In this document: positions 2,715 to 61,403 of the stretch, piece after piece
Layout of the letters: each line of letters opens with the position of its first letter
Position numbering within the stretch: the first letter of the stretch is position 1
Origin: Candidatus Nanosyncoccus sp.
GTDB lineage: Bacteria; Patescibacteriota; Saccharimonadia; Saccharimonadales; Saccharimonadaceae
Direction: 5' to 3'
Assembly (NCBI GenBank): GCA_045541215.1
Contig: JAZQIR010000007.1
Span: 79,167 to 143,166, forward strand
Length of the DNA: 64,000 nucleotides
Notes under the pieces: generated by a model
Told to the model about the DNA's origin: nothing
The model's input: only the letters and a program-made list of their open reading frames with translations
Database searches by the model: none
Made by a program: the position numbers and the translations under genes

Positions 2715-2838
2715 TTAACAATTTACGTTAATATTTTTGTAAAAATCATCCTTTAAAAAGCTCTTGCACAGAATCAAAAAATATAATATCATAAAAATAT
2801 AAAATTCCTATAATCCAACGTTAAAAAATCAAAAATGC

Positions 2839-2952
2839 ATGTTTATTGTAGGTAGAAATCGGCACCAGTAGGTATCGAACGTCTACAATAGGCATCTTGC
2901 ATACTTATTTAGCGTTGGATTATAGGAGCCTACGGGTGTCGATTTTTGTAAT
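2839..2952 (+). ncRNA. Candidate structured cis-regulatory RNA, copy 1 (crossed helices) in the FISUMP gene leader
   Basis: 13-bp helix 2839-2851/2883-2895 and 19-bp helix 2854-2872/2929-2947 with G-U pairs; same architecture at 59843-59944. Confidence 0.55.
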
Positions 2953-2986
2953 TTGGCCCGTAAGGTTAATAATACAGGTCAAATAT

Positions 2987-4501
2987 ATGAAAAAATCTAT
3001 TCAAATAATCGCATTAACTATATTCTTCTCAATGATAGGCGTTCTGTTTTTTGCCCCTACCTCCGCTACTAATATCCCCACTTCTGTAACCATTAAACCA
3101 TCATTAGGTCTAACGCTTTCTAGTTCTAGTGTAGTACTTAATTTAGATCCTACAACCAATCCTTTTGATAATGAGACAGTTAATATAGTAGTAGGTACCA
3201 ATAATCCTACTGGATATTGGGTGACTATGTCTAGCAATAATAATGATACCAACCTAGTTAATACTAATGATATCACTAAGACTATTCCTACCTTAGAATC
3301 AAATATATCAGAAGCAGATTGCCCAGCTAATTATTGGGGATATAAAATTAGTAGTAATAGTAGTACTGGCGATAGTAATACTAACTATTTACCATACGTA
3401 TCAGGAGCCACTATTGCTAGCAATAATACAAAAGTGAATAACGACACTACTAATCTTACTATTGCATCTAAAATAGATTATCTTAGTGTACCAGGGTTAT
3501 ACAAACAAACTTTTAATTTTACGGCATTACCACATATTACTAATTATTATATGCAAGATCTTTCTGACCCTACTTTGGCTCAGGAAGTCTGCAGAACTGA
3601 TGCTCCAAGCATTGTCATGGACAAACGTGACGAACATCCCTACCTAGTCCAAAGACTAAAAGATAATCATTGTTGGATGCTAGACAATCTAGACTTAGAC
3701 TTAACTAACGAGTCTATCGTAGCAAACCTCACCACAGAAAATACCAATATAGACACTACAAATGATCCATACGCCCTAGAAAGCCTCAAAAACGGCGCTC
3801 GCTCTAATGGTGACAAATACGCTACTGCCGGCCTAGAATATCACAACTGGACTGGTGCCGGTATGACGCCAGTAAGTCCTAATTATAGCTTTTCTCAACC
3901 ACTAGTAAATAGAAGTGGTAGATGTGATCCCTCTAAGAACAGTGGCACCCCATGCGTAGGCAAATGGCAAGACGCTAGCTACACCAACAATACAGTCATA
4001 GACACCGCAAATGCTTCCAACACCAAATACAACTATGGCCCAGGTAGCTATAAGATTGGCACCTACTACAACTATTGCGCCGCTTCTGCCGGTACCTACT
4101 GCTATGGTGACAATACTAGTGCCGGTACTCCACCAGAGAACAGCTCCCCAACTTCAGACATCTGCCCAGCTGATTGGCATATACCAAGTGATAATGGTGG
4201 CACGAACGGCGATTACATCACTCTTTGCTCCGCTATTAAAGGCAGTGCCTGTGCAGATGCCAATTGGAACACTATGAGCATTACGGATTCCACCAGTATG
4301 CAATACCAACTATCTACACCTCTTTCCGGATATTACTTGAACAACTCTGCACATGAACATGGTTCATTCAGCACTTTCTGGTCTTCTACCTATGGCAATA
4401 GTCTTGGCATGTCTCGTCTTGCAATTAGACCATCAGGCGTCCACCCACGAGGTCTTAATTATCGCAATACCGGCGGATCTATCCGCTGTGTCTCCCCCTA
4501 G
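2987..4501 (+). CDS. Secreted FISUMP (Fib_succ_major)-domain protein
   Basis: Likely start ATG 2987 (MKKSIQII, signal peptide); CWMLDNL, YYNYCAA, ICPADWHIPS, FWSST, GGSIRCV motifs; paralog at 59976. Confidence 0.8.
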   Translation: MKKSIQIIALTIFFSMIGVLFFAPTSATNIPTSVTIKPSLGLTLSSSSVVLNLDPTTNPFDNETVNIVVGTNNPTGYWVTMSSNNNDTNLVNTNDITKTIPTLESNISEADCPANYWGYKISSNSSTGDSNTNYLPYVSGATIASNNTKVNNDTTNLTIASKIDYLSVPGLYKQTFNFTALPHITNYYMQDLSDPTLAQEVCRTDAPSIVMDKRDEHPYLVQRLKDNHCWMLDNLDLDLTNESIVANLTTENTNIDTTNDPYALESLKNGARSNGDKYATAGLEYHNWTGAGMTPVSPNYSFSQPLVNRSGRCDPSKNSGTPCVGKWQDASYTNNTVIDTANASNTKYNYGPGSYKIGTYYNYCAASAGTYCYGDNTSAGTPPENSSPTSDICPADWHIPSDNGGTNGDYITLCSAIKGSACADANWNTMSITDSTSMQYQLSTPLSGYYLNNSAHEHGSFSTFWSSTYGNSLGMSRLAIRPSGVHPRGLNYRNTGGSIRCVSP

Positions 4502-58592: not shown

Positions 58593-59498
58593 CTATCTTC
58601 CAAATATTCCGCGTTTTTTAGCCGATTTAAATTCTTCCAAAAGCTCTTTTTGTTTTCTAGATAGATTCCTAGGTGTTTCCACTAAAATCGTCACAATATG
58701 TGGGCCTCTATCACCGTCATTCCTAAATGGCACTCCATGCCCAGACAATTTAAACGGCGTACCGCTCTGCGTACCTGCTGGCACTTTCATAGTCACCACT
58801 CCGTCCACCGTCAAAACTTCCACCTCACACCCAAGTGCCGCATCCACCATGTCAATTGTCTGCTCCGATAAGATAATTGCGCCTTCACGAGTCAAAGATT
58901 TATGTGGTTTAACTCGTATTCGCACGTACAAATCGCCTGGCTCCGAACCACCCTCAGGAGCTGGGCCACCTTTGCCACGAAGTTTTATACTCATTCCATC
59001 ATCAATCCCAGCCGGAATTTTTACTTTTATATTTTCACCATTATGATCAATGTCTTTGGTCGTACCAAAAATTGCCTCTTCAAAAGTCAAGGTCACTGTA
59101 GTCTGATAATCTGCACCTTTCCTAGGTCTCCTTGGCCCTCCAAAACCAAACAAACTACCCAAAATATCATCAAACACACCCCCACCACCAAAGTCAAAGT
59201 TAAACGACTGACCATTGTAATTAAAACCGCCACCAAACGGGTTGCCACCGCCAAACCCACCAGCGCCACCACCCACACCAGCATGTCCAAACTGGTCATA
59301 ACGCGCTCGTTTTTGTTTATCAGAAAGCACGTCATGTGCCTCGTTAATTTCTTTAAACTTAGCTTCGGCTGTCTTATCACCAGGATTCTTGTCTGGATGA
59401 TACTTGATTGCTAATTTTCGGTAAGCCTTTTTTATTTCATCATCAGAAGCATTTTTTGATACTCCTAAAACTTCATAGTAATCACGTTTTTCCGCCAT
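58593..59498 (-). CDS. dnaJ: DnaJ-class chaperone lacking the zinc-finger domain
   Basis: [15 protein letters not shown] motif, G/F-rich linker, C-terminal domain; no CxxCxGxG repeats. Confidence 0.93.
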
Positions 59499-59518
59499 AA
59501 TACATCTATTATACATTA

Positions 59519-59545
59519 CTAGCACTCAAAAAGCAAGAGTGCCAA
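59519..59545. promoter_or_regulatory. CIRCE element upstream of dnaJ
   Basis: CTAGCACTC-N9-GAGTGCCAA, arms identical to the dnaK-proximal copy. Confidence 0.9.
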
Positions 59546-59842
59546 CCCAAACTTTCCAAGTATTGTAAAAATTACAATACTTAAACTTGACATTTATGCA
59601 CAAGTTTGTTATAATTAGGAAAAGATTGGTTAATAGCCACGACACCCCAGACCCAAAAATCTGGGGAATATTATTTCTTAAATACATCAAAAAAACACCC
59701 TCAATCACGATTAAATAATATTGTAAAAATTACAATACTATTTTTAACATAAAGATGATAATTATGATACAATTAAAGTGCGATAATTAAATATGTATAT
59801 CAAAGGCAGCCAATTTTTATAGAAAAATAATTTGGCAGTCAA

Positions 59843-59944
59843 ATACAACATAGAAATGGCATCATGAGGAAGTCAAAATGTTGTATCTGGCAATGCCCGA
59901 TATACATGTTTGATTATCGCACCTCGTGGTGCCATTTTTGTAAT
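59843..59944 (+). ncRNA. Candidate structured cis-regulatory RNA, copy 2
   Basis: Helix 59843-59851/59878-59886 and 18-bp helix 59852-59869/59922-59939 with G-U pairs; shares TAGAAAT, GATTAT and ATTTTTGTAAT with copy 1. Confidence 0.55.
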
Positions 59945-59975
59945 GGTATCACCTATAAATCATAAGTGAGGTACC

Positions 59976-61403
59976 ATGACCATACATATAATTAAAACCA
60001 AAAGAGCAACATCATACATAAAAGCACCAATACATACAATAATATATGGTATTCCGGCATTACTCTTGATATCAGCAATACTGATTTTAAATTTATTCTT
60101 AATTAGTCCTACCCACGCCGACTCACTCACCTATTCTGTCACTATAGACCCTAGTCTTAATATAGCTCTGTCTTCCAACAGCCTCATTTTAGATTTAAAC
60201 CCAGTCACGAAAGCTTTTGCCACTAGAGATTTAGACGTTACTATATCCAGCAATGGTGGTAATGGCTATAAACTTAATATAACTTCTGATAGTAATACTA
60301 CCAATCTAGTTAATACACTAGATAGCACTAAGACTATTAGCACTCTACCCATTGTTATAGGTACTACTTCCGGTAGTAGTATTACAACTTACACTGAAAG
60401 TGATTTCCCAGTCAACAAATGGGGTTATAAAATAGGTACTACTAGTACTGGCTATCTTCCATTCATTTCTGGTACTACTATTGCTCTAAATAATACTCCT
60501 ACCACAGAAGATACTACTAGACTCACCTTTGCTTCTAAAATAGACTACAGCCAACCCTCAGGTTTATATTCTATCAATCTCACTCTAAATGGCACCGTTA
60601 ACCCTACCAGTCCCCCTTATATGCAAAACTTAGATCCTAGTGTATGCGTCAAAGAACATCCTACCCTAGTAGTAGATTCTAGAGACAATAGATCCTATTA
60701 CATCCAAAGATTGCTAGACAACAAATGTTGGATGATTCAAAATTTAAGATTAGGGCAAGATTTAGAACCAGTTACTGGAGCCTTAATTCTTACAGACCAA
60801 GATACCAATATTAATACGAATGATGCCTACAATCCTAGAAAGGAATTCGTGTTAACAAATAAGCTAGTAGAGGGCAAAATGCCAAGTAAAAAAGTTGATG
60901 ACCCATTGGCTAGCGATGAAATTGGCACTATTTGGGATGATTCTGCTTTTTATTGTACGTCATACGGCTGTTATTATAATTTCTACACCGTTACAGCAGG
61001 TATAAACGCAGAAGGGGATGAAACAGTTACAGGAGAAGTAAATATTACTACTACTATTTGCCCTAAAGGTTGGACCTTGCCTACTGGCAACAAAACTGCC
61101 AGTGATACGTCGGACCTTAAAATATTGGCGTCAGCATATGCATATCAACCCGCAAAGATAATTGTAAATCCCAATTCTGCTACAGAGAATATTAATGGCG
61201 CCTCTACACCTGGATTCACGCTGGGAGGCAATTATCATGCTAACGGAGCCTATCATGTAGGCCAAAGCGGAGATTATTGGACTCGTAGCAACTTTTCGAA
61301 ATCCTACGCTCATGATTTATATTTCAATAGTTCGGTAATCTACTATACTAATCGACATACCAAAGACAATGGCCGTTCCGTCCGCTGCCTCCTCCAAGAA
61401 TAG
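59976..61403 (+). CDS. FISUMP (Fib_succ_major)-domain protein, paralog of 2987-4501
   Basis: Same N-terminal domain (YMQ.L, LASKIDY); CWMIQNL, ICPKGWTLPT, YWTRS, GRSVRCL. Confidence 0.8.
   Translation: MTIHIIKTKRATSYIKAPIHTIIYGIPALLLISAILILNLFLISPTHADSLTYSVTIDPSLNIALSSNSLILDLNPVTKAFATRDLDVTISSNGGNGYKLNITSDSNTTNLVNTLDSTKTISTLPIVIGTTSGSSITTYTESDFPVNKWGYKIGTTSTGYLPFISGTTIALNNTPTTEDTTRLTFASKIDYSQPSGLYSINLTLNGTVNPTSPPYMQNLDPSVCVKEHPTLVVDSRDNRSYYIQRLLDNKCWMIQNLRLGQDLEPVTGALILTDQDTNINTNDAYNPRKEFVLTNKLVEGKMPSKKVDDPLASDEIGTIWDDSAFYCTSYGCYYNFYTVTAGINAEGDETVTGEVNITTTICPKGWTLPTGNKTASDTSDLKILASAYAYQPAKIIVNPNSATENINGASTPGFTLGGNYHANGAYHVGQSGDYWTRSNFSKSYAHDLYFNSSVIYYTNRHTKDNGRSVRCLLQE

Follow-up and report, generated by a model that had tools for sequence, protein, structure and literature searches.

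The E. coli rpsO/S15 and alpha-operon S4 pseudoknots are small, overlap the ribosome-binding site and control translation only. The ompA, ermC and aprE leaders carry stable 5'-terminal hairpins that act as stabilisers. Both groups bear comparison with the element described here, a leader RNA that occurs twice in a 64,000-nucleotide stretch of DNA from Candidatus Nanosyncoccus sp. (contig JAZQIR010000007.1, positions 79,167 to 143,166; this whole stretch is referred to as the window). The two window copies lie on the + strand at 2806-2989 and 59778-59978, each directly upstream of a gene for a surface protein with a FISUMP domain. Their layout suggests an on/off switch for surface genes. Gene regulation in Saccharibacteria and in other Candidate Phyla Radiation (CPR) bacteria is little known. 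Attachment to host bacteria is their way of life, and contact is probably made through their surface proteins.

Both copies have the same order of elements: promoter, C, A, B, A', C', B', an invariant A+UUUUU, B'' and the ribosome-binding site. A sequence-only reading of the window had proposed two crossed helices in the order A-B-A'-B', and a base-by-base layout confirmed this order in both copies. In this layout A has 13 bp and B 21 positions in copy 1, and A has 9 bp (plus 4 past a bulge) and B 20 positions in copy 2. That reading had captured the crossed helices A and B but had overlooked the outer helix C (20-24 bp), the U-run as a possible terminator tail, and B''. Helix C:C' encloses A and crosses B, and it makes A part of a single hairpin of ~45 bp at the extreme 5' end of the RNA. 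Box B is located at the tip of this hairpin and B' directly past its base.

Helix B is formed by 2852-2872/2929-2949 in copy 1 (21 positions: 16 Watson-Crick, 4 G.U and 1 A.G) and by 59850-59869/59922-59941 in copy 2 (20 positions: 16 Watson-Crick and 4 G.U). The three helices of both copies together comprise 107 positions with 14 G.U pairs, no A.C and 1 other mismatch, in keeping with the earlier remark that noncanonical positions are nearly all G.U on the + strand. The minimum free energy was -66.3 kcal/mol for copy 1 (z = -7.5) and -78.9 kcal/mol for copy 2 (z = -9.2), and in neither case were any of 200 shuffled sequences as stable. The - strand folds were ~13 kcal/mol weaker in both copies. 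Copy 1 has neither the middle helix M nor the U-rich bulge that are found in much of the family; copy 2 has a side hairpin at that place. The minimum-energy fold of copy 2 pairs B' 59926-59936 with B'' 59942-59952 (11 bp). The same B'' can pair with the ribosome-binding site and start codon through AUGGUA/UACCAU plus UCAC/GUGA, and the neighbourhood of B'' in copy 1 can pair with 2975-2985, adjoining the start codon.

Segments previously listed as fixed were recovered, with TAGAAAT at 2853 and 59851, GTTGGATTAT at 2914 and GTTTGATTAT at 59908, and ATTTTTGTAAT at 2942 and 59934. The segment GTTKGATTAT is indeed present in both copies, but it is the 3' arm of helix C, is common to these two copies only, and covaries freely family-wide.

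The leader belongs to a large family. Motif searches of this genome (0.88 Mb in 32 contigs, ~40% GC) identified at least 11 copies. A scan for B' plus the U-run in one genome per prokaryotic species generated 69 loci, ~48 of them from about a dozen animal-gut Candidatus Saccharibacteria or Nanosyncoccus genomes and up to 17 in one genome. The remainder were chance matches or ordinary terminators of unrelated bacteria. Metagenomes were scanned with a B...B' pattern in which the bases after B' were unconstrained, which yielded 33 further Saccharibacteria-type copies and 37 GC-rich chance matches. RNAalifold, when applied to a plain MAFFT alignment, recovered only B:B' and the variable helices were misaligned. 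Hence a covariance model, R1, was seeded from two near-identical copies, and leaders were accepted at E < 1e-5. R1 identified 78 full-length leaders in the gut Saccharibacteria loci fetched from genomes and metagenomes, among them the window copies with 41.8 and 38.9 bits. On the seed sequences, reverse-strand matches scored ~20 bits vs 200.

The leader measures ~127 nt (median) from helix C to B' and 150-200 nt overall. The -10 box ends exactly 4 nt ahead of the first helix C pair in 59/76 copies, with an extended TG in 52, so the transcript is predicted to begin at the base of the hairpin. In copy 1, where there are several candidate -10 boxes, the promoter scan picked TGCACA-16-TATCAT, ending at 2792. 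The family hairpin is composed of C, usually M, and A; the sequences of the arms drift and their pairing is kept. In 70/78 copies a conserved U-rich, AUUUUUAUA-like bulge separates M from A on the 5' strand. Box B reads AAUGGCRCC-GNRA-GG in most genomes and GGCACCAGUAGG or GGCAUCAUGAGG in this one. B' begins 0-2 nt after C' and is nearly invariant (CCUYGYGGUGCC). B'' varies in sequence and position by subfamily, and a local hairpin between B' and B'' is predicted in nearly all copies. The start codon lies ~30 to ~260 nt beyond B', depending on the copy.

Two further features of the leaders were observed. Within alignment columns 46-112, the single-stranded AUUUUUAUA-like motif resembles AUUUUUGUA, which is found after B', and the two could be sites for one factor. 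Leaders with the start codon 180-260 nt past B'' (downstream of L044:361-514, L059, L004, L031, L034 and others) contain another long hairpin, with the core CGTGATGTGATAAGAAATTTTATCACATCACG, within the spacer. This hairpin was initially called a 50-aa open reading frame (ORF) by the ORF finder.

The covariation of the helices is extensive. In the R1 alignment (n = 78), standard pairs occupied 94.6% of cells and 44/52 pairs had changes on both sides. None of 500 shuffles reached the same level, and slid controls were 35-41% paired. Since the R1 alignment was fitted to the hairpin, a plain MAFFT alignment of 48 copies was counted as well. In this alignment helix C was 96.9% paired, with 15/16 pairs changed on both sides, and B:B' was 99.1% paired. 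B:B' is outside the structure of the R1 model, therefore its count is unbiased by the fit. Among the 78 leaders, all 15 pairs of helix A were changed on both sides. B:B' was 95-99.7% paired over its three segments and had 4 pairs with both-sided change. One of its pairs occurs as A-U, G-C, G.U and U-A, and B otherwise varies only in ways that are wobble-compatible or compensated. B'', opposite the same B' bases, has the same R/Y variation. These compensatory changes in A:A' and B:B' among 78 homologues extend to the family what had been proposed from two copies, namely that pairing is kept while the stems differ.

Exchange of partners led to the same picture. The arms of the whole hairpin gave on average -47.6 kcal/mol with their own partner vs -17.4 kcal/mol with a foreign one, and the arms of the A region gave -19.0 vs -6.5 kcal/mol, with an identity of 33% between copies in the A flanks. 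The + strand was more stable than the - strand in 50/50 copies (mean difference 12.9 kcal/mol), and the family hairpins contain 258 G.U pairs vs 12 A.C single mismatches. The strand bias and the G.U excess argue for an RNA rather than a DNA element. Judged by sequence comparison, the family is an RNA of the + strand, with the crossed helices A:A' and B:B' under selection. The order of an H-type pseudoknot, S1a-S2a-S1b-S2b, is present as A-B-A'-B' with both helices covarying, and neither A:A' nor C:C' can be drawn with B:B' uncrossed. With B at the tip of the hairpin and B' at its base, joint existence of the helices requires a sharp bend or a melted helix A.

Rfam 15 was searched with the 64-kb window at gathering thresholds, and the sole match was a tRNA. 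Around both copies, with E up to 10, the search returned weak microRNA, small nucleolar RNA and small RNA noise far under gathering scores, so the earlier impression that this is no known riboswitch agrees with the database. Phage and plasmid collections contained no match to the leader. Literature searches retrieved no paper describing such an element, and none linking Saccharibacteria or CPR bacteria to riboswitches or leader RNAs. The suspected link to surface proteins was borne out, as the leader precedes members of one surface-protein gene family. The family is thus an uncatalogued set of cis-acting leader RNAs found at the 5' end of surface-protein mRNAs in gut Saccharibacteria. Base conservation in it is limited to B, B', the U-run and the U-rich bulge, and the surface-protein context suggests no metabolite. 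A T-box relationship was considered and rejected: there was no RF00230 match around either window copy at E up to 10 and no Stem I/specifier architecture, and the genes encode surface proteins.

We felt that the leader has about an even chance of being a transcription attenuator, with its trigger on the hairpin tip or the U-rich bulge and a translational component in some copies. B' has two selected partners and the highest conservation, which together are the signature of a switch element. It would be the shared strand of a conformational switch, pairing with B or with B''. While polymerase is on the U-run, B'' would not yet have been made and only B would be available to B'. B:B' would compete topologically with helix A and would coexist with C (and M), through a bend or the melting of A alone. 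B:B' was calculated at -26.1 +/- 2.0 kcal/mol, before a pseudoknot penalty, and helix A at ~-19 kcal/mol, plus a few more with the tip, which makes the choice nearly balanced. At ~-50 kcal/mol the complete hairpin is too stable for B:B' to prevail by unfolding it entirely.

In the proposed OFF state, B:B' would set a GC-rich duplex right before the U-run and cause premature termination. In the ON state, the tip and helix A would stay closed, perhaps held by a factor on the tip or on the U-rich bulge, and polymerase would read through. After read-through, B'' would capture B' in a local hairpin and leave the ribosome-binding site open. In short-spacer copies such as copy 2, free B'' could also mask the Shine-Dalgarno (SD) sequence and AUG, which would add a translational layer.

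Several observations are consistent with the attenuator. The 3' arm of a GC-rich helix abuts a U-run: B' (…GGUGCC) is followed directly by A+UUUUU in 33/33 copies from the metagenome scan, which left those bases free, and in both window copies. This tail resembles those of ordinary terminator-like sites of the window (CTTTTTTGTG, TGTTTTTATT and AGTTTTTAAC). The ribosome site had an accessibility of 0.58 with the real B'' vs 0.45 with shuffled spacers (p = 3e-5). A device acting on translation alone is hard to square with the wide range of distances between B' and the start codon. A strand annealed just upstream of a U-tract can reportedly release the transcript, even in trans (work ascribed to Yarnell and Roberts, 1999), which makes a long-range terminator helix conceivable.

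Other observations weigh against the attenuator. A contiguous short-loop terminator is not what the leader contains, as the B arm lies a median of 51 nt upstream of B' and the helix crosses A:A' and C:C'. To our knowledge no natural terminator has been described that is a pseudoknot. The equilibrium strongly favours the full hairpin together with B':B'', and B:B' would need to act kinetically. A simple terminator scan identified nothing in copy 1 and only a 5-bp hairpin in copy 2. The U-run is degenerate (TTTCTGTG) in one of the leaders of this genome. No set of conserved unpaired bases resembling a ligand pocket is evident. Finally, when B' was blocked, the relay from B'' to the ribosome site performed no better than shuffled spacers (0.48 vs 0.51 shuffled, p = 0.2).

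Two candidate parts of the mechanism were set aside. The small hairpin GCACC-loop-GGUGC was rejected as a real terminator and kept as a weak contributor; the scan flagged it in copy 2 only, and C:C' covariation disrupts its fifth pair in some members of the family. The idea of a general B''-to-ribosome-site relay was rejected because of the shuffled-spacer result and retained for short-spacer copies such as copy 2. The hairpin that the sequence-only reading had placed at both start codons stands in copy 2, as B'' paired with the ribosome-binding site, but is statistically weak as a general relay.

Covariation of all helices would also be expected if they coexist in a static fold. The 5'-terminal hairpin would then be an mRNA stabiliser against 5'-end-dependent RNases, and B:B', as the long-range pseudoknot of a bent hairpin, a tertiary lock formed together with C, M and A. 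Only a few nt separate the start of helix C from the predicted transcription start, the hairpin combines great stability with a conserved length (median 127 nt from C to B'), and the large U-rich bulge between M and A could be a hinge. A stabiliser, however, needs no ~45-bp hairpin with a conserved tip. The static fold also leaves three things unexplained: the second conserved partner of B', the invariance of A+U5, which pairing does not need, and the fact that conservation is highest in the shared strand B'. We regard a static fold as unlikely, though deserving some weight.

A purely translational switch, in which the ribosome-binding site is covered by B' or B'' in one conformer and free in the other, with the U-run as only a loop or enhancer, has a slightly smaller chance of being correct. 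B'' (AUGGUAUCAC) has two alternative partners in copy 2 and its contig C1 twin: B' and GUGAGGUACCAU, the latter covering SD and AUG. Blocking B' cut the accessibility of the ribosome site by >0.1 in 16/30 copies and raised it in 2, and the switch amplitude was above that of shuffled spacers (p = 8e-6). Once B' was blocked, however, real spacers masked the site no better than shuffled ones, as noted above. In many copies the start codon is 180-260 nt past B'', and the invariance of A+U5 is again unexplained.

Processing or action in trans appears improbable. Helix C (18-24 bp), a long and almost perfect duplex at the hairpin base, could be an RNase III substrate. Alternatively, B of one leader could pair with B' of paralogue mRNAs and couple expression across the family, given that B and B' are conserved across paralogues whose stems differ, so that any leader could pair with any other, and that an intermolecular B:B' helix is free of the topological problem. 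Yet B' is fixed directly after C' in every copy, which points to cis, and no free-standing B-like or B'-like gene was found elsewhere in the genome. A trans-acting small RNA with such a box was accordingly rejected, as the search of the genome turned up none outside the leaders.

An element acting at the DNA level, be it an invertible promoter, a cruciform or a mobile repeat (for example a miniature inverted-repeat transposable element), is barely credible and was rejected: 20-24 bp inverted repeats do flank a ~80-100 bp segment beside surface-protein genes, and other paralogues in the same genome look phase-variable via a (TA)n tract, but the arms differ wholly between copies and leave no common recombinase site, the bias for G.U over A.C and for + over - stability in 50/50 copies are properties of RNA on the + strand, and the match to a DNA repeat family that the sequence-only reading had named as fatal was absent from the phage and plasmid collections.

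It is possible, and we suggest it tentatively, that the attenuator represents a new class in which the terminator helix is a long-range pseudoknot between the hairpin tip and the strand before the U-run, in topological competition with an inner helix, not in competition for shared nucleotides. The class would be family-wide, with 10-30 copies per genome, and would control surface adhesins of episymbiotic CPR bacteria, possibly through a common trans factor at the tip or bulge that responds, for example, to host contact. The coordinates of the leader elements and of the genes that follow them are listed below.

Features of the two leader copies and their downstream genes in the window
Feature	Position	Strand	Remarks
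Copy 1, candidate -10 boxes	TATAAT 2782-2787; TATCAT 2787-2792; TATAAA 2798-2803	+	Predicted; several candidates
Copy 1, helix C 5' arm	2806-2825	+	Partner 2908-2927; 20 positions, 19 Watson-Crick and 1 G.U; in minimum-energy fold
Copy 1, helix A 5' arm	2840-2852	+	Partner 2882-2894; 13 bp including 3 G.U
Copy 1, box B at hairpin tip	2853-2872	+	Core GGCACCAGTAGG at 2861-2872; complement of B'
Copy 1, helix A 3' arm (A')	2882-2894	+	
Copy 1, helix C 3' arm (C')	2908-2927	+	Includes GTTGGATTAT
Copy 1, box B'	2929-2952	+	CCTACGGGTGTC at 2929-2940, then GATTTTTGTAAT; U-run 2943-2947
Copy 1, box B'' (GGCCCGTAAGG)	2955-2965	+	Alternative to B as partner for the 5' half of B' (CCT/AGG and ACGGG/CCCGT)
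Copy 1, downstream gene	2987-4501	+	504-aa protein with signal peptide and C-terminal FISUMP; PF09603 E = 3.9e-7, TIGR02145 E = 1.2e-9, both just under curated cut-offs
Copy 2, promoter TTAACA-18-TACAAT with extended TG	59744-59773	+	Predicted; 4 nt between its end and helix C
Copy 2, helix C 5' arm	59778-59801	+	Partner 59899-59922; 24 positions, 22 Watson-Crick and 2 G.U
Copy 2, side hairpin and junction	59805-59840	+	Holds the conserved U-rich bulge motif AUUUUUAUA, ~59813-59821
Copy 2, helix A 5' arm	59843-59851	+	Partner 59878-59886; 9 Watson-Crick pairs, 4 more past a bulge
Copy 2, box B at hairpin tip	59850-59869	+	Core GGCATCATGAGG at 59858-59869
Copy 2, helix A 3' arm (A')	59878-59886	+	
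Copy 2, helix C 3' arm (C')	59899-59922	+	Includes GTTTGATTAT
Copy 2, small hairpin GCACC-TCGT-GGTGC	59919-59932	+	Terminator-like according to the simple scan
Copy 2, box B'	59922-59944	+	CCTCGTGGTGCC at 59922-59933, then ATTTTTGTAAT; U-run 59935-59939
Copy 2, box B'' (AATGGTATCACC)	59942-59953	+	Partner is B' or the ribosome-binding site/start codon GTGAGGTACCAT at 59966-59977
Copy 2, downstream gene	59976-61403	+	475-aa signal-anchored FISUMP protein; PF09603 E = 3.3e-10, TIGR02145 50 bits, both above cut-off

Across the family, nearly all downstream genes encode signal-anchored proteins of ~500 aa. FISUMP was identified in 6/10 of those tested, mostly under the curated threshold. The divergent upstream genes of the window copies are dnaK (705-2612, - strand) at copy 1 and dnaJ (58593-59525, - strand) at copy 2. 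CIRCE-like palindromes, CTAGCACTC-N9-GAGTGCCAA, precede dnaK and dnaJ at 2640-2666, 2688-2714 and 59519-59545, and are presumably HrcA operators of the chaperone genes, not of the leader. The DnaK protein is 90-94% identical to DnaK-encoding regions in loci of two metagenome-assembled genomes of gut Saccharibacteria, one of these genomes being labelled Candidatus Nanosyncoccus. A heat-shock or thermometer link was rejected, as leader-bearing surface-protein genes at four loci of other Saccharibacteria genomes adjoin dnaK (L001, L051) or dnaJ (L027, L063) in differing orientations, which amounts to loose synteny only.

Outside the window, this genome has 23 further paralogues of the surface family (for example at C10:25590, C32:139043 and, on the minus strand, C7 ~40256) with a leaderless-style start, TATAAT-N6-ATG, and proteins beginning MLKATN. 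Each contains a (TA)9-13 tract at about codons 14-22, and 4/23 are in frame with the long ORF. Apparently this is slipped-strand phase variation, a second control regime of the same family. Upstream of copy 2, the palindrome (G)TATTGTAAAAATTACAATA(C) is present two times (59560-59580 and 59719-59737), the near-identical GTTGTAAAAATTACAAC is upstream of the -10 box in (TA)n paralogues, and similar sites precede paralogues on C10 and C2. A transcription factor of the surface genes may use these palindromes as a common operator. At 59587-59680 on the + strand there is a perfect consensus promoter, TTGACA-17-TATAAT with TG, followed ~30 nt on by a hairpin (59645-59666) and a T-rich tail, which could yield a short transcript of its own in the interval from dnaJ to leader copy 2.

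The presence of 10-30 paralogous surface genes with the same leader in genomes of <1 Mb, together with the 23 (TA)n paralogues here, points to dedicated RNA-level control of the surface repertoire. The leaders are a strongly covarying RNA family that is uncatalogued, and their crossed-helix, terminator-like design, if true, would extend the attenuator repertoire. The novelty of the element is that of a variant of known alternative-pairing leaders.

Stable 5' stem-loops provide one comparison. Like the ompA, ermC and aprE leaders, the element has such a structure at or within a few nt of the 5' end of the mRNA of a highly expressed envelope protein. It differs from them in being far longer and in having conserved pairing of its tip with a downstream box, a second partner for that box, and an invariant U-run. 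With the rpsO/S15 and S4 leaders it shares a hairpin loop that pairs downstream near the translation start, and two conformers, one of which could be stabilised by a factor. Unlike those leaders, it has a hairpin of ~45 bp, a pairing of 12-20 bp, a U-run thereafter, and a start codon that is sometimes >200 nt away. The T-box is approached by a few copies whose box B contains UGGUACCGCG, a sequence similar to the T-box core UGGNACCGCG, and by the pairing of a conserved box with the 5' arm of a terminator-like helix. Most copies, in contrast, read GGCRCCGUAAGG, and the genes are not aminoacyl-tRNA synthetase or amino-acid genes. Finally, like trp- and pyr-type attenuators and riboswitch expression platforms, the leader has a conserved strand (B') with two exclusive partners and a GC-rich helix before a U-run, located between promoter and gene. 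In contrast to these attenuators, its terminator-like helix is long-range, with ~51 nt between the arms, and crosses a pre-formed hairpin. Its alternative partner B'' is downstream of the U-run, and it has neither a leader peptide nor any known aptamer or binding protein.

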